DNA of 64,000 bases, taken from NCBI GenBank assembly GCA_017455185.1, contig JAFTBN010000062.1, positions 867 through 64,866 of the forward strand. Reading direction: 5' to 3'. The notes under the pieces were generated by a model. The model worked only from the letters and a program-made list of their open reading frames with translations, made no database searches and was not told the DNA's origin. Positions 24,371-43,354 of this stretch are shown here, one piece after another. A program made the position numbers and the translations under genes. The DNA comes from Clostridia bacterium (GTDB lineage Bacteria > Bacillota > Clostridia > Oscillospirales > CAG-272). The first letter of the stretch is position 1. Each line of letters opens with the position of its first letter.

Positions 24371-26455
24371 ATGCCAAGGGAATATTCACTTGAGCACACC
24401 AGAAACATCGGCATCATGGCTCACATCGATGCCGGTAAAACCACGACAACCGAGCGTATCCTGTTCTATACGGGTAAAACGCACAAGTTGGGCGAAGTTC
24501 ACGACGGCGCTGCCACCATGGACTGGATGGAAGAAGAGCAGGAACGCGGTATTACCATTACTTCCGCTGCGACCACCTGTTACTGGAAAGGCAACCGTAT
24601 CAACATCATTGATACGCCCGGACACGTGGACTTTACCGTTGAAGTGGAACGTTCTTTGCGTGTGCTTGACGGATCTGTAACCGTTTTCTGTGCCAAGGGT
24701 GGCGTAGAACCGCAGTCGGAAACGGTTTGGAGACAAGCTGACAAATATCACGTGCCTCGCATGTGCTATGTCAACAAAATGGATATCACAGGCGCTAATT
24801 TCTATCGCGTTGTCCAGATGATCAAGGATCGTCTGGGTGCCCACCCGGTGCCCATCCAGCTGCCGATCGGAGCGGAGGGTGCTTTCAGAGGAATTATCGA
24901 CCTGCTGACAATGGAAGCGTTTGGCTATTACGATGATTTAGGCAACGACATTCGCGTCGAACCGATTCCGGAAGATATGATGGAAAAGGCTCAGCAATAT
25001 CGGGATGCCATGATCGAAGCTCTGGCGGATACGGACGACGCAATTGCGGAGAAGTACCTGGAAGGCGAGGAGATTTCCATTGAGGAAATCAAGGCCGCCA
25101 TCCGTAAGGCAACCATCGCCAATGAAATCGTTCCGGTCGTCTGCGGAACCTCCTATCGTAACAAGGGCGTACAGAAACTCCTCGATGCGATCGTGGATTA
25201 TCTGCCTGCTCCTACGGACATTCCTTCCATTCGCGGAACCAACCCGGAAACCGGGGAGGAAGAAGACCGTCATGCATCGGACGAAGAGCCCTTCTCGGCT
25301 TTGGCGTTCAAGATCATGACCGATCCGTTCGTCGGAAAACTCTGCTTCTTCCGTGTTTACTCGGGTCATCTGAACGCGGGCGACACCGTGTACAATTCCG
25401 TGAAACAAAGAAGAGAGCGTATGGGACGCATCCTTCTGATGCATGCCAATACGCGTACGGATATTGACGAATGCTTCAGCGGCGATATTGCGGCTGTGGT
25501 GGGCGTCAAGAACGTGACAACCGGAGACACTCTGTGCGATGAGAAACATCCGGTCATCCTGGAGTCCATGGAATTTCCGGAACCGGTTATCCGCGTGGCG
25601 ATTGAACCCAAGACGCGTGCCGGTCAGGAAAAGATGGGAATTGCTCTTGCCAAACTGGCGGAGGAAGACCCGACCTTCCGGACTTATACGGATGATGAAA
25701 CCGGACAGACCATCATCGCCGGAATGGGCGAATTGCATCTGGAAATCATTGTGGACCGTCTGCTTCGCGAATTCAAAGTCGAAGCAAACATCGGTAAGCC
25801 TCAGGTTGCTTATAAAGAGACCATTCGCAAACGCGTGGATTACGAATATAAGTACAAGAAGCAGTCCGGTGGTGCCGGTCAGTACGGACATGTCAAGATC
25901 ATTGTCGAGCCGAACGAGCCCGGCAAGGGATATGAGTTCATCAACGCAGTGACCGGAGGCGCAATTCCGAAGGAATACATCGAACCCGTCAACCAGGGTA
26001 TCCAGGGCGCTATGCAGTCCGGTGTTCTGGCCGGGTACAATGTGGTGGACGTCAAAGTCACTCTGTACGATGGTTCCTATCATGAGGTTGACTCGTCCGA
26101 AATGGCCTTCAAGATTGCCGGCTCTCTGGCCTTCAAGGAGGCATCCAAACTGGCGGATCCGGTTCTGACCGAACCGATCATGAAGGTGACGGTCGTTCTG
26201 CCGTCCGAGTACATGGGAGATGTCATGGGCAACCTGATTGGCCGCCGCGGACAGATTCTCGGTACGGAAGACAACAACGGCACCACCGAAATCTCCGCCA
26301 ACGTTCCGCTGTCCGAGATGTTCGGCTATGCAACCGATTTGCGTTCCAGAACGCAGGGCCGCGGACAATACACCATGGAGCCTTCTCACTTCGCAGAAGT
26401 GCCGAAGTCTATTATGGAAACCATTATTAAGTCCCGTAAGGGCAGCGAAAACTAA
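24371..26455 (+). CDS. fusA: Elongation factor G
   Basis: 694 aa. Contains [30 protein letters not shown] and NKMD. Confidence 0.97.
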
Positions 26456-26481
26456 GAAAAATTTTATGGAGGATTTTCAAA

Positions 26482-27687
26482 ATGGCAAAGCAAACCTTTG
26501 AAAGAACCAAGCCCCACGTAAACATTGGTACCATTGGTCACGTTGACCATGGTAAAACCACTCTGACTGCTGCAATTACCAAAGTTCTTTCTCTGAAGAA
26601 CGGTAATATCGAGTTCCTGGCTTATGACCAGATCGATAACGCACCGGAGGAAAAGGCAAGAGGTATTACAATCAATACCCGTCACGTTGAGTACGAAACT
26701 GAAAAACGTCACTATGCACACGTTGACTGCCCCGGGCACGCTGACTATGTCAAGAACATGATTACCGGTGCAGCTCAGATGGATGGCGCTATCCTGGTTG
26801 TTGCCGGCACAGACGGACCGCTTCAGCAGACCCGTGAGCACGTTCTGCTCGCCCGTCAGGTTGGCGTTCCTGCCATTGTTGTTTTCATCAACAAGGTAGA
26901 CCTCGTTGATGACGAAGAACTGCTCGACCTCGTTGAGATGGAAATCCGCGATCTGCTTTCCTCTTACGACTTCCCGGGCGACGACATTCCGGTTGTCCGC
27001 GGTTCCGCTCGTAATGCTCTTGAATCCACTTCCAAGGATCCGGATGCTCCCGAGTATGCTTGCATCTGGGAACTGATGAAGGAAGTTGACGAATACATTC
27101 CGACTCCTGAGCGTCAGTCCGCACTGCCGTTCCTGATGCCGGTTGAGGACGTCTTCTCGATTTCCGGTCGTGGTACCGTTGCAACCGGTAGAGTTGAGCG
27201 TGGTACCGTTAAAGTCGGTGATGTGGTTGAAATCGTCGGTCTGTCCGATGAGAAGAAATCCACAACCGTTACCGGTGTCGAAATGTTCCACAAGCTGCTG
27301 CCGCAGGCAGAAGCAGGCGACAACATCGGCGCTCTGCTCCGTGGTATCGCGAAGGACGAAATCGAAAGAGGCCAGGTTCTGGCTAAGCCGGGTTCCGTTC
27401 ATCCGCACACCAAGTTTGTTGGTCACGTTTACGTTCTGACCGAGAAGGAAGGCGGCCGTTCCAAGCCGTTCTTCGCAGGTTACAGACCGCAGTTCTATTT
27501 CAGAACCACCGACGTTACCGGCACCATCAGCCTTCCTGAAGGCGTTGAGATGTGCCGCCCCGGTGACAACGTGGATATGACCGTTGAACTGATTACTCCT
27601 ATCGCTTGCGAGCAGGGTCTTCGTTTCGCTATCCGTGAGGGTGGCAGAACCGTTGGTTCCGGCGTCGTTTCCTCGATCATCGAGTAA
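26482..27687 (+). CDS. tuf: Elongation factor Tu
   Basis: 401 aa. Contains [28 protein letters not shown] and NKVD. Confidence 0.97.
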
Positions 27688-34439: not shown

Positions 34440-35924
34440 ATGGATAAACAAGTGGAAATGCTGCATCAGGACCCGATGTCCCCCCTGTATTGGTTCTGCG
34501 AACTGAGCCAAATTCCCAGGGCCTCCTACCACGAGGAGAAAGTGGCCGCCTGGCTGATGGATTTTGCAAAAGAGAAAGGATTCTTCGCCGCAACGGACAA
34601 GGACCGCAACGTGTTTATCCGGATGCCGGCCACTCCCGGATACGAGCATGTGCCCCCCGTGCTTCTGCAGGGGCATACGGATATGGTCGCCGAGAAAAAC
34701 GCGGACTGCGACCACAATTTTGATACCGACCCGCTGGACCTTTACATCGAGGACGGATACCTGCGCGCCAGAGGCACGACCCTGGGCGCGGATGACGGAA
34801 TCGCCGTGGCGGTGATGCTGGCCGTGCTGAACGGCGCGATTGAGCCACACCCGGCGGTCGAATGTCTCTTTACCGCTTCCGAGGAAGTGGGACTGGACGG
34901 GGCGAAAGGATTTGACACCTCTCTCATCACCGCCCATCGGATGATCAACATGGACAGCACCAGCCTTTCGGAAATCATTACGGGCTGCTGCGGCGGCATC
35001 CGTTCGGACCTGACTTTCCGTCCTGAAAGGGAGGACTATCCGGATTCGGTGCCGGTCCGCCTGTTTTTGTCCGGCCTTTGCGGAGGACATTCGGGTGAGG
35101 ATATCAACAAGGGCAGAAGAAACGCCAACCGCGTAAGCGGCCGGATGCTGGCCACTCTTCTGGAAACCGTACCGTACCGTCTCATTTCCGTCCGGGGCGG
35201 ATCCAAGGACAATGCCATTCCCCGGGAATGCGAGGCGGTCGTCGCCGTAAAGAAAAAGGATCTGGAGGCGTTTACTGCCTGTTTCGAACGGGAGCGGGAT
35301 GAGATTTTCCGCATTCTGCGCGGGCCGGACTGCAGCGCGAAATGGGAATGCGCCCTTTTGCCGGGGTGCAGCCTGAAGCCGATGGGGCAGACCTGGACCC
35401 GGAATCTGGTCTTCCTTCTTTCCACGGTTCAGAACGGCGTCTTTTCCATGGATCCCGACATTCCGACCCTGGTCGGATTTTCACGGAATCTGGGGGTGAT
35501 CCGGACCGAGGGGGATACGGTCGACCTGGTCTTTTCCACCCGCTCGGCTTACGACAGCCAGCTGGCCGCTTCCACCCGCCAGCTCGATCAGTACGCCGCC
35601 GTTCTCGGCGCAACGGCGCGCCATTACGCCAAATATCCCGGCTGGGTGGCAGACCCGGAATCCGCGGTCCGCAAACTCTGGTCCGAGGCCTATTCCCGGG
35701 TCAGCGGAGGCAGCATCGAGCCGCTGGTGATTCACGCGGGACTGGAATGCGGGCTTCTGTTTGAGAAACGCCCGGATCTGGATATCATTTCGGTCGGACC
35801 GAATCTGTACGACATTCATTCGCCGGGCGAAAAGATGGAACTGCGGTCAGTTGAAGTGTTCTGGAAAACCCTGAAGACGGTTTTCCGGATGATTTGCGCA
35901 CAGGAGGGAGCATCCGATGCCTAA
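34440..35924 (+). CDS. pepD: Aminoacyl-histidine dipeptidase (Xaa-His dipeptidase, M20 family)
   Basis: PLYWFCELSQIPRASYHEEKVAAWL, LQGHTDMVAEKN, TLGADDGIAVA and HAGLECG. The ATG at 34440 is preferred. Confidence 0.85.
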   Translation: MDKQVEMLHQDPMSPLYWFCELSQIPRASYHEEKVAAWLMDFAKEKGFFAATDKDRNVFIRMPATPGYEHVPPVLLQGHTDMVAEKNADCDHNFDTDPLDLYIEDGYLRARGTTLGADDGIAVAVMLAVLNGAIEPHPAVECLFTASEEVGLDGAKGFDTSLITAHRMINMDSTSLSEIITGCCGGIRSDLTFRPEREDYPDSVPVRLFLSGLCGGHSGEDINKGRRNANRVSGRMLATLLETVPYRLISVRGGSKDNAIPRECEAVVAVKKKDLEAFTACFERERDEIFRILRGPDCSAKWECALLPGCSLKPMGQTWTRNLVFLLSTVQNGVFSMDPDIPTLVGFSRNLGVIRTEGDTVDLVFSTRSAYDSQLAASTRQLDQYAAVLGATARHYAKYPGWVADPESAVRKLWSEAYSRVSGGSIEPLVIHAGLECGLLFEKRPDLDIISVGPNLYDIHSPGEKMELRSVEVFWKTLKTVFRMICAQEGASDA

Positions 35925-36819
35925 CGAGTATCATGACAAGTTCAGACGCCGTCCCGGTCAAGGCAACGGCAGAAAAGGCGGATTTGTTCCGCACGGGAAA
36001 CCCCGCCACGAGGAGAACCAGCGTCCCGAACCTGCCCCGGTCAGCCCGGAGGATCTGCGTGAGAGCGAAGATTCGGTGCACGGAGAGATGGAAAACCTGG
36101 CCGTCATCGGGCGGAACGCCGTTCGGGAACTGCTCCGGTCGGAGAGGACCGTGGATAAAATCCTGGTGCAGCACGGGCAGCGCGAGGGTTCGATCGTGGA
36201 ACTGGTGGCGCGGGCCGTTGAGAAGGGAATTCCGGTCGTGGAGTCCGACAAGGCCAAACTGGATGAGATTGCGGGATTTGCTCCGCACCAGGGAATCGTC
36301 GCCTTTGCGGCGGAAAAAGACTATTGCACGGTGGAAGATTTGCTTCAGATTGCGCACGACCGGGGAGAAAAGCCTTTGCTGGTCATTGCGGACGGCATTA
36401 CCGATCCGTACAACCTGGGCGCCGTCATCCGCTGCGCCGAAGGCGCCGGAGCGCACGGCATCATCATTCCGAAGCGACGTTCCACAGGTTTGTCTCCGCT
36501 GGTCAGCAAAGCCAGCGCGGGCGCCATCGAGCATATGGCCGTTGCCAAAGTGGCCAATCTGGCCAGTACGGTGCGGCAGCTGAAGGAAATGGGCCTTTGG
36601 GTCTATGCCGCGGAAGCGCAGGGCAAACCGTATACCGAAATCGATTTCACGGTGGGCTGCGCCCTGATCATGGGAAGCGAAGGCGAGGGTGTTTCCGAAC
36701 TCCTCAAGAAGACGAGCGACGAAATCGTTTCCATTCCCATGTACGGAAAAGTCAATTCGTTCAATGTGTCTACGGCGGCCGCCGTGCTGTTGTGCGAAGC
36801 GGCAAGGCAGCGGCATTGA
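35917..36819 (+). CDS. rlmB: 23S rRNA (guanosine-2'-O)-methyltransferase, TrmH/SpoU family (RlmB-like), with a basic N-terminal tail
   Basis: NLGAVIRCAEGAGAHGIII, ALIMGSEGEGVS and IPMYGKVNSFNVSTAAAVLL. The start overlaps the pepD stop (ATGCCTAA). Confidence 0.85.
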   Translation: MPNEYHDKFRRRPGQGNGRKGGFVPHGKPRHEENQRPEPAPVSPEDLRESEDSVHGEMENLAVIGRNAVRELLRSERTVDKILVQHGQREGSIVELVARAVEKGIPVVESDKAKLDEIAGFAPHQGIVAFAAEKDYCTVEDLLQIAHDRGEKPLLVIADGITDPYNLGAVIRCAEGAGAHGIIIPKRRSTGLSPLVSKASAGAIEHMAVAKVANLASTVRQLKEMGLWVYAAEAQGKPYTEIDFTVGCALIMGSEGEGVSELLKKTSDEIVSIPMYGKVNSFNVSTAAAVLLCEAARQRH

Positions 36820-36868
36820 AGAAGGCGCAAAGCAAGTTTCAGTCAGGGGCTGACAGAACGGAGATTAC

Positions 36869-39800
36869 ATGAGCCAGAAGAAAAAACACAGGCATCAGGA
36901 TTTGAGCAGCGCCCGGGAATTGAAATCCCGCGTGGCGCAGGGCGGGCTTGCTCCGTCCGGCAGTTCTTCCGGAAGCGATTTGTCGCCTGAGGAGAAGCAC
37001 CGGATCGAGGATATCCTGGCCCGTCACGCCAACGCGGCAGGTCCTGCGCCGTCCCGGAAAGAGGAAGCGCCCGGGGAAGAGTCCGACGCCGGCATGGATT
37101 TGCCCTGGGAGGAATCCGAGCAGACCGATACGGAACCGACGGATGACACGGAACCGACGGACGACACGGAAACGGCATCGGAAGAGAAATTCTTCGGGGA
37201 AGAACCCGAAGCAGCCGAAGAGCCCGATGAGCCGGCCGAACCCGACGTTCCGCCGACTCACCGAAGCACGGCCAGCCGGATTGCCAGGGCGAGAATGGCC
37301 CGCATGGCGGGCGTTCAGATTTCCGAGTCCGAGCCGAAGGAATCGTCCGGGACGGACGTGTCCGAGACGGACGTGTCCGAGACGGACGTGCCCGAGACGG
37401 ACAGCGGGGATGGCGGGGAAGAAATCACCGAACCCGCGGCCAACGGACCGGATTGTGAAGAATACGATGACCTGATACAATCCGGGACCGGCCCTGAAGC
37501 CGAAGAGACAGAGGACTTGTCGGATGCCGGGCCCGAGGAGCCCGGGCCCGAAGAGATACCGGATGCGCAGGAAGGCGCAAAACCCGAACCGGATGAACCG
37601 CAGGACACAGCCGAAACGGTTGAACCGGCCAACACGGTTGAACCGGCCAACACAGTTGAACCGGTCAACACGACTGAACCGTTCCATCCGGCAGAAGCGG
37701 AATACGGGGAAGAAGAGGAAACGGCGCAGGAGAGCGACGGGTCCGAAACGCCGGTTGCCGGGGACGATTCCCCGGACGAAGAGTCTTCCGAATTCCCGGA
37801 CGGAGAGCAGGAACCTGACTCTGACGGAGAAGAGCCGGACGGGCAGGACGGGGAGGAACTCGACCCCGAGCAGGTCTGGACCCGGGAAAATGTGCCGGTA
37901 TACCGGGAGGAAAAACCGGGGAATGAGGAAACTTCGCTGCTCAGCGAAGATCCCCACGCGCAGGACGAGGCATCCCTGCAGGAAGCTTTCGGGCTGGACG
38001 CGGGACAGGGCAGGTCCCTGAGGAAGGGAAAGAGGGAGACCGCTTTCAGCTATCCCCGGGATCCGGCTGCCAAGGAACTGAGCGACGAAGACATATTGAT
38101 GATGAACAGCATCGGATTTGCCGCGGATTCGGTTCACGCCGCAGGCGCGGAACGGGTCGAACGCGTCCTGCACCGGGCCAGGAGCCAGAACAGACAGCCC
38201 GAACCGGAATCGTTCGTGTTCGGATATCCCGGAGAGGAATATTCGGGCAGACCGGAGCAGATTGAAAAGGCGCACGCCCGCTTTGACGCGAGCCGCAAAC
38301 GGCTCCGCTTGCGCGTGTTCTTTACGGTCGTGCTGCTTGTCCTGACCGCTTTCTTTGATTCGGTCAAACTGACGGGCCTTTTGGAATGGGCCGGAGAGTC
38401 GGGCGTGTCCGTCGAGCCGGTCTGGAACATCCTGATCAGCATGCAGTTCATGATTCTGGCGGCGCTTATATGCTACCGGAAAATCTGGGAGGGAATCAAG
38501 GGATTGCTTTTCTGCAAACCGATCCCCTGGTCGGTGCAGAGCGTCATGCTTCTGACAACGCTGGTATACGACGTCCTTTTGATGATTTTCCACGACGGAG
38601 ACGAGCTGCTGCTCTATCATGTTCCGGCTGTCGCGGCGCTGCTGTGGGGACTGGTCTGCGACTTCTTCACGCTGTACAAGGAACGCCTGTCGTTTGACGT
38701 GGCGACCGCAGACGGGGTCAAATGGGTGCTCAAGCCCCTGCCGCACCGGATGCGCGCCAGAGTGTACGACGACGGAAAGGTTCCGTATGTGCGGGATATG
38801 GACGAGGATTCGGTCAAACTCGGGGCGACCCGGACCTGGCGGGTCCGCAACTATTTTGCGCGCGCGGCCCGGTATCCGAAACATTACAAAGTGATTTTCT
38901 ATCTGCTGCTCGCGACGCTGCTTGTCGCCTTTTCGGGCAGCATGGCGGCCTATGGCGTGCAGATGAGCGCCGACCCGGCGACGGCGGGGATTGCGTCCCG
39001 TACGCTGCAGATTTTCATATTGCTGTGTCAGTTCGGACTGCCGGTCTCCCTTTTGATCGGGTATGTCTTCCCGCAGTGGAAGGCTTCCCGGTATCTGGCC
39101 GAGAAGGGCGCAACTGAAATCGGAAACTGTACGGGCGAGACTCTGGGCCGCACCAGATGGTCCAGGCAGGATGAACTGCTGACGGATTCCGACAAGAAGG
39201 TGAAACTGACTACGTCGGTCGTCTTCAGCGACCGGCTGATGTACAATTCCATGCTGGACCTCAAGCCTCGGCTGATCGGCGACGTTTCGCTCGTGGATTG
39301 TATGAACCTGGTTTCCGCCGCGGCCGCGGCCGTTGGGGGAACGCCCGAGTATTGGATCGATACGTCCTACCGCAACAACGACAAGGTCGTTCCGGGAACG
39401 GTGACCGATATGGCGCAGAACGGTTTCTGCTGCGACTGTGACGGAAGACACGTGATGGTCGGCGCCGGGCCGTACCTGCATGCCAAGGGCATTCTTGTGC
39501 CCGATACGCTGGCCCAATATGAACTGAAAACGGCCGAAAACACGGCCTGCGTGTATGTGGCGGTGGACGGACAGCTGAGTCTGATGCTCGAAGTCACCTA
39601 CGTGTCCGAGCCTACCTTCGAGCGGATTGTCTGGGATATGGCGTCCATGGGACTGCAGACCGCCATCTATTCGTACGACCCCAACCTTTCCGACCGGTTT
39701 CTGTCCAAGGCCCGGGTGGGCAAGGCAGTACCGGTGAAAGTGTACAAGCCTTTGTGGTTTGAAGAGGAATTCGTGTCGGAGGATGAGGACTGTGACATGC

Positions 39801-40156
39801 TGGCGCGCAGCGAACTGGGCCTGGCCGAGGTCATCAAGACTGACCGCCGGCTTGAGCGGTACAACCGCGGGGCGATTGTGCGGGGCTGGGTGTCCCTGTT
39901 CATCGGAGCCGGCCTGACGGTCGCGCTGACTCTGGCGGGACAGTTGTCGCTTTGCAACGGCCTGACCATCGCGGTGTATCAGAGCGCCTGGTGCCTGAGT
40001 TCCATTTTCCTGCACAGGGAGAATTTCGTCCGGCCTTCCCAGCGTGTCCGCGTCCAGCAAAAGGATTCCAGGCGGAAAAAGGCACAGAGCGGAGGACGCC
40101 GCGCGCAGGAAGAGGAGTACATCCGGCGTCACTCGAAAAAGAAAAACGGAAAATAA
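36869..40156 (+). CDS. Membrane protein with a ~470-aa acidic repeat-rich N-terminus and a degenerate P1B-type ATPase-like core
   Basis: The ATG follows GGAG. The N-terminal half is D/E/P/T-rich with in-frame tandem repeats. The C-terminal ~620 aa follow P-type ATPase order (paired TMs, a short A-domain remnant, TMs, a P/N-domain-like stretch VMVGAGPYLHAKGI...VYVAVDGQLSLMLEVTYVSEP...MGLQTAIYSYDPN, and terminal TMs). However, CPC reads CQF, DKTGT reads SDRLMY, TGDN reads SYDPN, and TGE and GDGxND are absent. Confidence 0.5.
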   Translation: MSQKKKHRHQDLSSARELKSRVAQGGLAPSGSSSGSDLSPEEKHRIEDILARHANAAGPAPSRKEEAPGEESDAGMDLPWEESEQTDTEPTDDTEPTDDTETASEEKFFGEEPEAAEEPDEPAEPDVPPTHRSTASRIARARMARMAGVQISESEPKESSGTDVSETDVSETDVPETDSGDGGEEITEPAANGPDCEEYDDLIQSGTGPEAEETEDLSDAGPEEPGPEEIPDAQEGAKPEPDEPQDTAETVEPANTVEPANTVEPVNTTEPFHPAEAEYGEEEETAQESDGSETPVAGDDSPDEESSEFPDGEQEPDSDGEEPDGQDGEELDPEQVWTRENVPVYREEKPGNEETSLLSEDPHAQDEASLQEAFGLDAGQGRSLRKGKRETAFSYPRDPAAKELSDEDILMMNSIGFAADSVHAAGAERVERVLHRARSQNRQPEPESFVFGYPGEEYSGRPEQIEKAHARFDASRKRLRLRVFFTVVLLVLTAFFDSVKLTGLLEWAGESGVSVEPVWNILISMQFMILAALICYRKIWEGIKGLLFCKPIPWSVQSVMLLTTLVYDVLLMIFHDGDELLLYHVPAVAALLWGLVCDFFTLYKERLSFDVATADGVKWVLKPLPHRMRARVYDDGKVPYVRDMDEDSVKLGATRTWRVRNYFARAARYPKHYKVIFYLLLATLLVAFSGSMAAYGVQMSADPATAGIASRTLQIFILLCQFGLPVSLLIGYVFPQWKASRYLAEKGATEIGNCTGETLGRTRWSRQDELLTDSDKKVKLTTSVVFSDRLMYNSMLDLKPRLIGDVSLVDCMNLVSAAAAAVGGTPEYWIDTSYRNNDKVVPGTVTDMAQNGFCCDCDGRHVMVGAGPYLHAKGILVPDTLAQYELKTAENTACVYVAVDGQLSLMLEVTYVSEPTFERIVWDMASMGLQTAIYSYDPNLSDRFLSKARVGKAVPVKVYKPLWFEEEFVSEDEDCDMLARSELGLAEVIKTDRRLERYNRGAIVRGWVSLFIGAGLTVALTLAGQLSLCNGLTIAVYQSAWCLSSIFLHRENFVRPSQRVRVQQKDSRRKKAQSGGRRAQEEEYIRRHSKKKNGK
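37130..37174 (+). repeat. In-frame 18-bp tandem repeat (about 2.5 copies; encodes TEPTDD)
   Basis: ACGGAACCGACGGATGAC at 37130-37147, ACGGAACCGACGGACGAC at 37148-37165, then a partial copy. Confidence 0.9.
37351..37402 (+). repeat. In-frame 15-bp tandem repeat (about 3.5 copies; encodes TDVSE)
   Basis: GACGGACGTGTCCGA twice (37351-37380), GACGGACGTGCCCGA (37381-37395), then GACGGAC. Confidence 0.9.
37616..37681 (+). repeat. In-frame 18-bp tandem repeat (about 3.7 copies; encodes TVEPAN)
   Basis: ACGGTTGAACCGGCCAAC twice (37616-37651), ACAGTTGAACCGGTCAAC (37652-37669), then ACGACTGAACCG. Confidence 0.9.
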
Positions 40157-40183
40157 GAATTGCAAGTAAGCAACAGGTAGATT

Positions 40184-42052
40184 ATGGAAGAAAAGAAAGA
40201 ATACGCGGGAATTTGGAAAGCGGTGCAGAAACCGGGCCGGTATGCGGGCGGAGAATTCGGACAGATCCTCAAGGATCCCGAATCCGTCGTGGCCAGGTTC
40301 GCGTTCTGCTTCCCGGATTCCTACGAAATCGGGATGTCCAATCTGGGCGTCCGGCTGCTTTACGGGGTGCTCAACGAAGACCCGAAAATCTGGTGTGAGC
40401 GCGTCTACGCTCCCTGGGTGGATATGCAGGAGCAGATGGAAAAGCACAACCTTCCGCTGTGCGCCATGGAAAGCGGAGATCCGCTGACCCGGTTCGATTT
40501 CATCGGGTTCACCCTGCAGTATGAAATGTGTTACACCAACGTCCTGAATATGCTCCGTCTGGCCCATATGCCGCTGTACGCGAAAGACCGGACCGAGGAT
40601 ATGCCCCTGGTCATCGGGGGAGGTCCCTGCTCGTACAACGCCGAGCCGATTGCGGATTTCTTCGATCTGTTCAACATCGGAGAAGGGGAGGAAATGCTGC
40701 CCGAAATCGTCAGGCTGTACGTCCGGATGAAGGAGGAAGGAACCTATACCCGTTCCGGTTTTCTGCACGAGGCCGCGCGGACCATTCCCGGCGTGTACGT
40801 TCCCTCTCTGTTCGAGGTGACGTACAACGACGACGGGACCATCCGCGCGTATACGCCGGTCTGCGACGACATTCCCCGGCAGGTGAAGAAGCGCATTGTG
40901 GCGGATATGGATACGGCATACTTCCCGAAGAAAGTCGTGGTTCCGTACATCGAGACGGTGCAGGACCGCATCATGCTGGAAGTGTACCGGGGCTGCATCC
41001 GCGGCTGCCGGTTCTGCCAGGCGGGCATGGTGTACCGCCCGGTCCGGGACAAGAGTCCGGATACGCTCAACGAACAGGCCATCTGCCTGTTTGAAAACAC
41101 GGGATACGAGGAAGTTTCCCTGACGTCGCTCTCCATCAGCGATTACCCGCGTCTGGAGGAACTGACGGACAAACTGCTGGCCTGGACGGTACCCAACAAG
41201 GTCAGTCTGTCCCTGCCGTCCCTGCGGGCCGACAGTTTTTCCAAGGAACTGATGGACAAGGTGGCGTCCGTACGCTCCTCCTCCCTGACTTTTGCGCCCG
41301 AGGCGGGCACGCAGAGACTGCGGGACGTCATCAACAAGAATGTAACCGAAGAGGACATCAAACATGCCACCGGCATCGCGTTTGCGGCCGGAAAGGATAC
41401 GGTCAAACTGTATTTCATGAACGGCCTGCCGACCGAAACCTACGAGGACATCCGCGGCATTGCCGAGTTGGCCGAGCACATCGTGGACCACTACTATGCC
41501 ACGCCGGGGCACAGCCGCCGGCCGGTTACGGTCACGGTCAGTGTGTCCTGCTTTATCCCCAAACCCTTCACGCCTTTCCAATGGGAGGCGCAGGATACCA
41601 TGGAATCCCTGGCCGAAAAGCAGAAATATCTGGCGGAATGCATCACCAACCGCAAAATCCGCTACCAACATCACGACGCCAAGGTATCGCGCATCGAAGC
41701 GGTGCTGGCAAGAGGCGACCGGAGGCTGAGCCGGGCTCTGGCCCTGGCCTGCGAGGAAGGGTTCCGGTTTGACGCCTGGGACGAGTTTTTTGATTACGAC
41801 AAGTGGCTGGATGTGTTTGCCCGGTGCGGCATCGATCCCGCCTTTTACGCCAACCGCGCCTTCGGGCTGGATGAGGTTCTTCCCTGGGACATCATCGACA
41901 TAGGAGTCAAAAAGGAGTTTTTGCTCCGTGAACGGGCCAAAGCCTATCAGGGAGAGACCACGCCGAACTGCAAGGAAGCCTGCTCGGGCTGTGGCGCGAA
42001 CGCATTGGGAGGGAAGCTGACATGGTGTCCGAAATACAGGAAGAAACAGTAA
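40184..42052 (+). CDS. Uncharacterised B12-binding-domain radical SAM protein (TIGR03960-like)
   Basis: 622 aa. The family-typical N-terminus is KAVQKPGRYAGGEFGQILKD. The radical SAM cluster is CIRGCRFCQAG. Confidence 0.75.
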   Translation: MEEKKEYAGIWKAVQKPGRYAGGEFGQILKDPESVVARFAFCFPDSYEIGMSNLGVRLLYGVLNEDPKIWCERVYAPWVDMQEQMEKHNLPLCAMESGDPLTRFDFIGFTLQYEMCYTNVLNMLRLAHMPLYAKDRTEDMPLVIGGGPCSYNAEPIADFFDLFNIGEGEEMLPEIVRLYVRMKEEGTYTRSGFLHEAARTIPGVYVPSLFEVTYNDDGTIRAYTPVCDDIPRQVKKRIVADMDTAYFPKKVVVPYIETVQDRIMLEVYRGCIRGCRFCQAGMVYRPVRDKSPDTLNEQAICLFENTGYEEVSLTSLSISDYPRLEELTDKLLAWTVPNKVSLSLPSLRADSFSKELMDKVASVRSSSLTFAPEAGTQRLRDVINKNVTEEDIKHATGIAFAAGKDTVKLYFMNGLPTETYEDIRGIAELAEHIVDHYYATPGHSRRPVTVTVSVSCFIPKPFTPFQWEAQDTMESLAEKQKYLAECITNRKIRYQHHDAKVSRIEAVLARGDRRLSRALALACEEGFRFDAWDEFFDYDKWLDVFARCGIDPAFYANRAFGLDEVLPWDIIDIGVKKEFLLRERAKAYQGETTPNCKEACSGCGANALGGKLTWCPKYRKKQ

Positions 42053-42781: not shown

Positions 42782-43243
42782 ATGGAAATCCGAAGAGCGC
42801 AGGCCGCCGATGCGGACCGGATTCTGGAACTGCTGGGGCAGGTGGCCGGTGTGCACCGCGCCATCCGTCCGGATCTGTTCGTGGGAAAAACAAAATACAG
42901 CCGGGAGGATTTGCTCTCTCTGCTGGAGAATCCCGAACGGCCCGTTTTCGTGGCCGTGGAGGAGGACCTTGTGGTCGGATATGCTTTTTTGTGGTTCGAA
43001 GAAAGACACGGAGGCGTTCTGGCACCCGGGACCGAACTGTACCTGGACGATTTGTGCGTCGACGAAAAATGGAGGCACAAAAAGGTGGCGTCAGCCCTGT
43101 TCGGACACGTCTGTGAGTACGGCCGCAACATGGGCTGCGCCGAACTCACGCTGAATGTCTGGACGGGCAACGACGGAGCTTTGGCTTTTTATGAAAAAAT
43201 GGGTATGAAACCGCAAAAAGTGAAGATGGAACTGCCGCTTTGA
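42782..43243 (+). CDS. GNAT-family N-acetyltransferase
   Basis: 153 aa. The acetyl-CoA-binding region is LCVDEKWRHKKVASALFGHV...LNVWTGNDGALAFYEKMGM. Confidence 0.8.
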   Translation: MEIRRAQAADADRILELLGQVAGVHRAIRPDLFVGKTKYSREDLLSLLENPERPVFVAVEEDLVVGYAFLWFEERHGGVLAPGTELYLDDLCVDEKWRHKKVASALFGHVCEYGRNMGCAELTLNVWTGNDGALAFYEKMGMKPQKVKMELPL

Positions 43244-43325: not shown

Positions 43326-43354
43326 TTGACATCCGTCTGGGTGTATGCTATACT
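43326..43354 (+). promoter_or_regulatory. Consensus promoter upstream of the SH3 lipoprotein gene
   Basis: TTGACA (43326-43331), a 17-nt spacer, and TGcTATACT (-10 at 43349-43354). The leader to the ATG at 43464 is about 100 nt. Confidence 0.65.

Follow-up and report, generated by a model that had tools for sequence, protein, structure and literature searches.

Here we describe gene X, located in a 64,000-nucleotide (nt) stretch of DNA (the window; contig JAFTBN010000062.1 of assembly GCA_017455185.1, a Clostridia bacterium of the order Oscillospirales), whose product clearly descends from a P1B (CopA-type) heavy-metal P-type ATPase and, as judged from its sequence, is without the features needed for an ATP-driven cycle and for metal binding. 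X is not a decaying gene, and the pump-like body of its product is under strong purifying selection. We lean towards reading it as a non-catalytic pseudo-pump that would serve as the membrane anchor of a polyanionic tether. A first-pass annotation, made from the letters of the window alone, had suggested a pump scaffold repurposed for a non-catalytic role, a reasonable suggestion that purifying selection and an intact CopA elsewhere in the genome strengthen. The open reading frame (ORF) that it delimited stands, at 1095 amino acids (aa):

36869..40156, + strand: gene X, pseudo-P1B-ATPase, 1095 aa; intact ORF, GGAG Shine-Dalgarno sequence 6 nt 5′ of the ATG

The relationship to P1B pumps is visible with profiles only. 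As a single sequence, X had no match in Pfam, NCBIfam or the PDB, so the claim of P-type ATPase ancestry could have been spurious, and a word-indexed protein search returned only 3–4 distant members, none of them named. Relatives were found in 31 of 41 related genomes, and an exhaustive search gave 754 cluster representatives at E ≤ 1e-3. A profile built from 16 family sequences, whose alignment is without a conserved 7–10-mer, matched Legionella CopA (3rfu) in the PDB at E = 4.8e-7; with 65 sequences, 3rfu was matched at 6.9e-11, followed by the Cd pump CadA (1.7e-5), HMA4, CopB and ZntA. Profile–profile alignment (hhalign) of the X family with 15 genuine CopA/Zn-type pumps, drawn from the same and related genomes, reached a probability of 99.3% (E = 2.6e-20) across 520 columns that run from the P1B-specific MA helix to M5. 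An AlphaFold2 (AF2) model of residues 430–1095 (predicted local distance difference test score (pLDDT) 82.7, predicted template modelling score 0.81) was then searched with Foldseek; the best 11 PDB matches were all P1B pumps (4bbj at 6e-13, ATP7B, HMA4 and ZntA among them), with KdpB and the P2/P3 pumps behind them.

AF2, with eight long transmembrane (TM) helices, and hhalign, from MA to M5, recover the P1B topology including MA/MB, and the order and fold of the actuator (A), phosphorylation (P) and nucleotide-binding (N) domains. The by-eye impression that the C-terminal ~620 aa track a P1B ATPase is thus confirmed by profile, hhalign, Foldseek and AF2 evidence over ~650 collinear aa. Two ways in which that impression might have failed were named in advance, an absence of supported P-type homology and intact DKTGT/TGE motifs under another alignment; the homology is significant (6.9e-11, 2.6e-20 and 6e-13), and no alternative alignment restores either motif. 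The Pfam models E1-E2_ATPase and HAD do not match X, no tested family member (n = 65) reaches the E1-E2_ATPase gathering score, and 2 of the 65 give sub-threshold matches to that model at E~0.016. In whole genomes from other orders, the X-family profile finds proteins of 626–819 aa at 1e-16 to 1e-20, and all four of those retrieved carry DKTGT, TGES and GDGxND.

Region by region, the body of X can be laid against CopA as follows, with motif column frequencies taken from 220 family members and DKTGT/GDGxND counts from 150 representatives:

38252..38686, + strand: MA, MB, M1 and M2, residues ~462–606; hhalign alignment from CopA MA onward, AF2 helices 462–502, 517–547, 553–574 and 584–612
38687..38881, + strand: vestigial actuator domain, ~65 aa, residues 607–671, no TGES, invariant K618; alignments and AF2
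38879..39103, + strand: M3 and M4, residues 671–745, L-P725-V in place of C-P-C; hhalign and column statistics
39152..39187, + strand: DKTGT-strand equivalent, residues 762–773, 'TRWSRQDELLTD'; D768 in the phospho-Asp column, E769 in the family-invariant Asp column
39203..39610, + strand: degenerate nucleotide-binding domain, residues ~779–914, including the insertion 787–803; hhalign, column statistics and AF2
39611..39811, + strand: C-terminal half of the P domain, residues ~915–981, with S-Y-D937-P938-N939, K960 and D974-C-D-M-L-A; hhalign and column statistics
39812..40027, + strand: M5 and M6, residues ~982–1053, Y1037-Q1038 nearly invariant; AF2 and hhalign

Neither DKTGT nor GDGxND occurs in any of the 150 relatives; TGE[SN] occurs in 4 of them, by chance, and the window protein has no TGE. 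Between M2 and M3, X has ~65 aa against ~130 aa in the CopA of the same genome, so that the first-pass annotation was right to call the actuator domain cut down and devoid of TGE, and wrong only in its size, which is ~65 aa rather than ~40. Its replacement of CPC by LLCQFGLP is also upheld: the proline of CPC survives there in the hhalign alignment as L-P725-V, and this M4 Pro is 99% conserved in the family, with the flanking Cys of CPC not conserved.

At the phosphorylation site the register had to be corrected. MAFFT, HMMER, hhalign and AF2 secondary structure alike place the strand at residues 762–773; the earlier pairing of VVFDKTGTLT with VVFSDRLMYNSM lies ~20 residues out of register, and 'VVFSD' (784–788) is the first hairpin of the N domain, followed in the AF2 model by a genus-specific, low-confidence insertion (787–803). 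The window protein reads RWSRQ-D768-E769-LLT at this strand. Since hhalign aligns D768 with the phosphorylated Asp of CopA, X keeps an Asp at this position, with K-T-G-T lost. The family consensus is F(92%)-[D44/E25]-D(95%)-x-[D53/E34]-h-[F/Y 90%]-P, and profile alignments put the family-invariant Asp one residue after the nucleophile column.

Further along, SEHPL has become GG(T)P in the window protein (823–826) and GGPL family-wide, and GxG has become N-G-F (851–853) and D-G-I, respectively. The equivalent of TGDN is [T/S]-x-D-P-N, in which T/S935 (98%), D937 (97%), the inserted P938 (99%) and N939 (86%) are conserved; the proposed change of TGDN to SYDPN was read correctly, appearing as S-Y-D937-P-N in the profile alignment and in hhalign. 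K/R is 95% conserved at position 960, and the ADVGIA strand reads D-C-D-M-L-A in the window protein and D-S-G-I-V in the family, with the G976 column at 90%. The GDGxND strand is deleted, hhalign showing a gap in its place, in keeping with its absence from all 150 relatives and with the first-pass annotation. The Cu-ligand residues YN (M5) and MxxSS (M6) are absent, and there is no Pfam match to an HMA (CxxC) metal-binding domain, the N-terminus being an acidic disordered arm instead. Set against the motifs of HAD-superfamily phosphatases (I, DxDx(T/V) at the end of strand 1; II, S/T; III, K/R; IV, DD/GDxxxD), the family as a whole conserves T/S935, K/R960 and a D-x-[D/E] pair; motif IV is deleted, and the window copy is without the +2 acid. 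The former active site was not eroded but remodelled into new family motifs, which are conserved to the same degree as the originals.

The window copy is itself an outlier of its family at these positions, with F767 changed to Q, D769 to E, the +2 acid to L771 and G976 to D (39167–39175, 39179–39181 and 39794–39796), and two relatives from the same genus have M-T-D-[E/Q]-D-P at the P-site. Judging from these sequences, the remodelled pocket is apparently being relaxed or re-tuned in this genus.

X is widespread in its order. It was found in 156 of 201 sampled genomes, nearly all matches being stop-free open frames, and in 131 of 170 high-quality genomes, with at least one positive genome in 29 of the 30 families tallied; in a class-level sample, no full-length member was found outside the order. 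The named relatives come from uncultured gut, rumen and digester metagenome-assembled genomes (Oscillospiraceae, Eubacteriales, Clostridia and Candidatus Flemingiibacterium). Among 40 closely related pairs, the ratio of non-synonymous to synonymous substitution rates (dN/dS) is 0.02–0.10 in the pump body, where indels are practically absent, and 0.09–0.24 in the arm, where they are frequent. Identity among members is 22–35%, versus 48–59% for CopA among the same genomes, so that X diverges about twice as fast as its catalytic paralogue. The genome of the window also encodes four P-type ATPases that are intact, among them a canonical CopA (CxxC, CPC, DKTGT, SEHPL and GDGIND) and a Zn/Cd-type pump; thus, X is no stand-in for a lost exporter.

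In place of metal-binding domains, the body is preceded by a long acidic segment and a short structured element, and in the window protein it is followed by a basic tail:

36869..38068, + strand: polyanionic disordered arm, residues 1–400; pLDDT <50 for 57–400, composition and charge; helix 40–56 of moderate confidence
37126..37681, + strand: three in-frame tandem repeats within the arm; Tandem Repeats Finder (TRF), 18 bp × 2.6 (TEPTDD), 15 bp × 3.9 (TDVSE) and 18 bp × 3.7 (TVEPAN)
38069..38191, + strand: juxtamembrane motif 'LSDEDILMMNSIGF...', residues 401–441, a three-helix element just before MA; pLDDT 84–92 in the full-length AF2 model
40028..40153, + strand: basic C-terminal tail, 42 aa, residues 1054–1095, predicted long helix; rare in the family, where the median tail is 2 aa

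The N-terminal ~440 residues contain 28% D+E and carry a net charge of about −89. Charge, composition and AF2 pLDDT bear out the earlier description of a disordered acidic N-terminus in place of metal-binding domains, and TRF its three different tandem repeats. In 212 members, arm length has a median of 336 aa (5–95%: 176–607); the median D+E content is 26% and the median net charge −51, and 197 of these arms are negative. In the arm of one relative (L004:1408-3948, minus strand), perfect Pro-Glu repeats (PEPEPE...) continue for ~115 residues, which indicates that the arm is freely rebuilt from simple repeats yet stays acidic. The tip of the arm bears the family-specific motif D-I-S-A-D-E-L-L-x-x-L-K, seen in 48 members and present in the window protein as the degenerate version 'DLSSARELKSRV' (residues 11–22). 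We considered whether the tip might be a targeting signal common to other proteins and rejected this, having found it in no other ORF of ~0.8 Mb of flanking sequence or of the genome of the window. The juxtamembrane element follows the family motif E-x-D-x-T-D-x-N-L-M-x-A-F-G-M, with D405, D408, A414 and G426 at least 90% conserved. The basic C-terminal tail of the window protein may pair with the acidic arm within X, or bind nucleic acid.

The genes around X are conserved as well. As the first-pass annotation had placed it, X lies between rlmB and a radical-SAM pair, now identified by matches to TIGR00186, TIGR03960 and TIGR03936/DUF2344:

35917..36819, + strand: rlmB (23S rRNA Gm2251 2′-O-methyltransferase), conserved upstream neighbour; TIGR00186, 215 bits against a cut-off of 160
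40184..42052, + strand: TIGR03960 B12-binding radical-SAM gene, conserved downstream neighbour; TIGR03960, 926 bits
42022..42771, + strand: TIGR03936/DUF2344 radical-SAM-associated gene, overlapping the TIGR03960 gene; profile match

Of 91 X loci, 85 have rlmB upstream, 82 a radical-SAM gene downstream and 71 DUF2344 next, all on the same strand, with median gaps of 40 nt from rlmB to X and 70 nt from X to the radical-SAM gene. The order rlmB, X, TIGR03960, TIGR03936 holds even for a member only 18% identical to X. In five complete genomes of the order that are without X (L117–L121), TIGR03960 lies behind a Na+/H+ exchanger, a xanthine/uracil permease or a fragment of an M50-like peptidase, and there is no rlmB near the radical-SAM gene; thus, the loss of X accompanies the break-up of the whole cluster. 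That a divergent X might hide between rlmB and the radical-SAM gene of these genomes was rejected, as unrelated genes precede the latter. In the window, strong promoter-like sites occur only at 35761 and 43326, flanking the cluster, and there is no convincing terminator inside it; both observations are weak evidence.

We slightly favour the view that X is a non-catalytic pseudo-pump anchoring a polyanionic tether in the membrane. Under this proposal X would no longer pump, and its body would act as membrane anchor and docking platform. The disordered arm of 180–600 residues would project into the cytoplasm from the three-helix juxtamembrane element and end in a conserved, amphipathic tip helix, forming a flexible tether that may catch, at the membrane, a partner that is positively charged or binds the tip. 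RlmB and the radical-SAM pair, which are probably co-transcribed with X, or their ribosomal substrate would be the most plausible candidates. RlmB of the window has a ~60-aa N-terminal extension before its SpoU_sub_bind domain (35917–36100), with a basic start (KFRRRPGQGNGRKGG...), and this extension could be an electrostatic partner of the acidic arm; it is not universal, as the RlmB beside a distant X member (L093) has only 257 aa.

Several observations weigh against this proposal. The remodelled acidic pocket is kept, as F-[D/E]-D(95%)-x-[D/E](87%), [T/S](98%)-x-D(97%)-P-N, K/R(95%) and D-S-G, and, going by these columns, resembles a conserved site for a ligand, metal or phosphoryl group more than it does a purely structural relic. 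The radical-SAM pair is independent of X, as members of the order without X keep the radical-SAM gene in other contexts. Adjacency to rlmB and the radical-SAM gene is no proof of physical or functional interaction, and the radical-SAM pair is without a known substrate.

The same pocket is the starting point of a second explanation, which we regard as the main alternative, though a tentative one: X would again not pump, and the P-site pocket would still bind Mg2+ or another cation, or else a phosphoryl group or small phosphorylated ligand, its occupancy altering the conformation of the head and controlling what the arm, tip or body binds, so that X would be a regulatory pseudo-pump rather than a passive anchor. 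The P-site residues are far more conserved than a scaffold needs (D769 95%, +2 acid 87%, T/S935 98%, D937 97%, P938 99%, N939 86%, K/R960 95% and G976 90%), the D-x-[D/E] spacing resembles HAD motif I with equivalents of motifs II (T/S) and III (K/R) kept, and the body has a dN/dS as low as that of enzymes. Such a sensor is harder to reconcile with the deletion of the Mg2+-binding GDGxND strand, with a nucleophile-aligned column that is just 44% D and 25% E, and with a window copy that has lost F767, the +2 acid and G976 yet retains an intact ORF; nor can a ligand be inferred from sequence. A more specific version, in which Mg2+ binding or phosphoryl transfer to the pocket, in the manner of a receiver or HAD protein, would set the exposure of the tip and of a polyanionic arm mimicking nucleic acid, so gating a membrane-proximal modification of rRNA or maturation of ribosomes by RlmB and TIGR03960/TIGR03936, appears to us unlikely.

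That X is still an active, extremely divergent P-type ATPase or transporter with non-canonical motifs is very unlikely. D768 does stand at the phospho-Asp column in hhalign, and the full 8-TM core, the conserved M4 proline kink and the strong selection would suit a working pump. On the other hand, X lacks TGES along with about half of the A domain, GDGxND has been deleted and K-T-G-T replaced, GGPL and D-G-I stand where SEHPL, with its ATP-contacting E/H, and GxG would be, all P1B metal ligands are gone, and every member scores below the Pfam E1-E2_ATPase gathering cut-off. A P-type ATPase that cycles without such features is not known from the established E1/E2 (Post-Albers) scheme (PMC10654040, PMC13466520). 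Finally, the idea of a decaying pseudogene, or of a by-eye artefact without homology, to which the lack of any Pfam, NCBIfam or PDB match for the single sequence might have pointed, is refuted by significant P1B matches in profile, profile–profile and structure searches and by an ORF that is intact in more than 100 genomes with dN/dS of 0.02–0.10.

As far as our searches reach, X does not belong to a described family. No Pfam or NCBIfam model covers it, every named member is annotated 'hypothetical protein', and the literature yielded no bacterial P-type ATPase described as catalytically dead, all of which agrees with the first-pass annotation; our literature search also found nothing relevant on the TIGR03960/TIGR03936 radical-SAM pair. 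With the P1B-1 pumps (CopA 3rfu/4bbj, ATP7B, ZntA, CadA and HMA4), X shares the fold and the domain order MA, MB, M1–M2, A, M3–M4, P/N, M5–M6, and it retains the M4 Pro, the T/S-x-D of TGD, an 'ADVGIA'-like strand and several structural glycines. Unlike them, it has no DKTGT, TGES, GDGxND, SEHPL/GxG, CPC, YN/MxxSS or HMA domain, its A domain is halved, its P domain has lost one beta-alpha unit, and its N-terminal arm of 180–600 aa is polyanionic; unlike CopA, it sits in an rlmB/radical-SAM cluster and not in a cop operon.

A polyanionic arm of this kind has possible analogues, although not homologues, in the C-terminal tail of bacterial SSB and the C-terminal region of Bacillus RNA polymerase delta, each of which, like the X arm, is a long, flexible, partly polyanionic segment with a short conserved end peptide, the probable site of partner binding. 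SSB and delta are soluble, nucleic-acid-associated proteins, whereas the presumed tether of X is N-terminal and anchored in the membrane on a retired pump. The nearest published parallel for the body is the degenerate flippase module of alveolate P4-ATPase–guanylate cyclases (P4GC), a P-type ATPase module that, like X, is kept after changes to its catalytic residues: some lineages (for example Cryptosporidium, and haemosporidians in P4GC-beta) have altered or lost the Asp of DKTGT and the Glu of the A domain (PMC13466520). The module is nevertheless needed there, presumably in a supporting role other than pumping (PMC13466520). The P4GC proteins differ in being eukaryotic members of the P4 subfamily with a fused cyclase, and their degeneration is partial and lineage-specific; in X a whole bacterial family is devoid of the motifs, both the A and the P domain have been physically shortened, and no enzyme is fused to the protein. 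TMEM94/ERMA-type proteins, which are eukaryotic and of another subfamily, have neither an acidic arm nor an rlmB context and are not among the top sequence or structure matches of X.

Three further features of the window were recorded around the cluster. Downstream of DUF2344, on the same strand and before the promoter-like site at 43326, lies a RimI-like GNAT acetyltransferase (42782–43243) with a weak, below-cut-off match to ribosomal-protein S18 acetyltransferase; going by this match, the transcription unit of this genome may include it as a further gene with a link to ribosomes, and it was not found as a conserved neighbour at other X loci. Antisense to X and the radical-SAM gene runs a stop-free frame of 1611 aa (36839–41674, minus strand), most likely a by-product of GC-rich codon usage, as both plus-strand genes have strong homologues. 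Some 10 kb upstream of X, at 24371–27687, a canonical fusA (elongation factor EF-G, 24371–26455, DTPGH present) is followed by tuf, so that this is an ordinary fusA–tuf pair and no His-less EF-G paralogue.

Few membrane enzymes are as well understood as the P-type ATPases, and we found no described bacterial family that keeps their fold without the catalytic cycle. X is conserved in an abundant gut and rumen order under enzyme-like constraint, with its old active site rebuilt into new invariant motifs, and its place is beside an rRNA methyltransferase gene and a widespread radical-SAM pair. As its members are now called 'hypothetical' or risk being mislabelled as heavy-metal ATPases, the family deserves an annotation model of its own. 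X could also give a first functional clue to the TIGR03960/TIGR03936 proteins. Its role, once worked out, would show to what uses the fold of a pump can be put after pumping has ended. Should the pocket prove to be a switch, X would be the first P-type ATPase fold known to be reused for signalling or scaffolding in bacteria and would offer a first functional handle on the radical-SAM pair.

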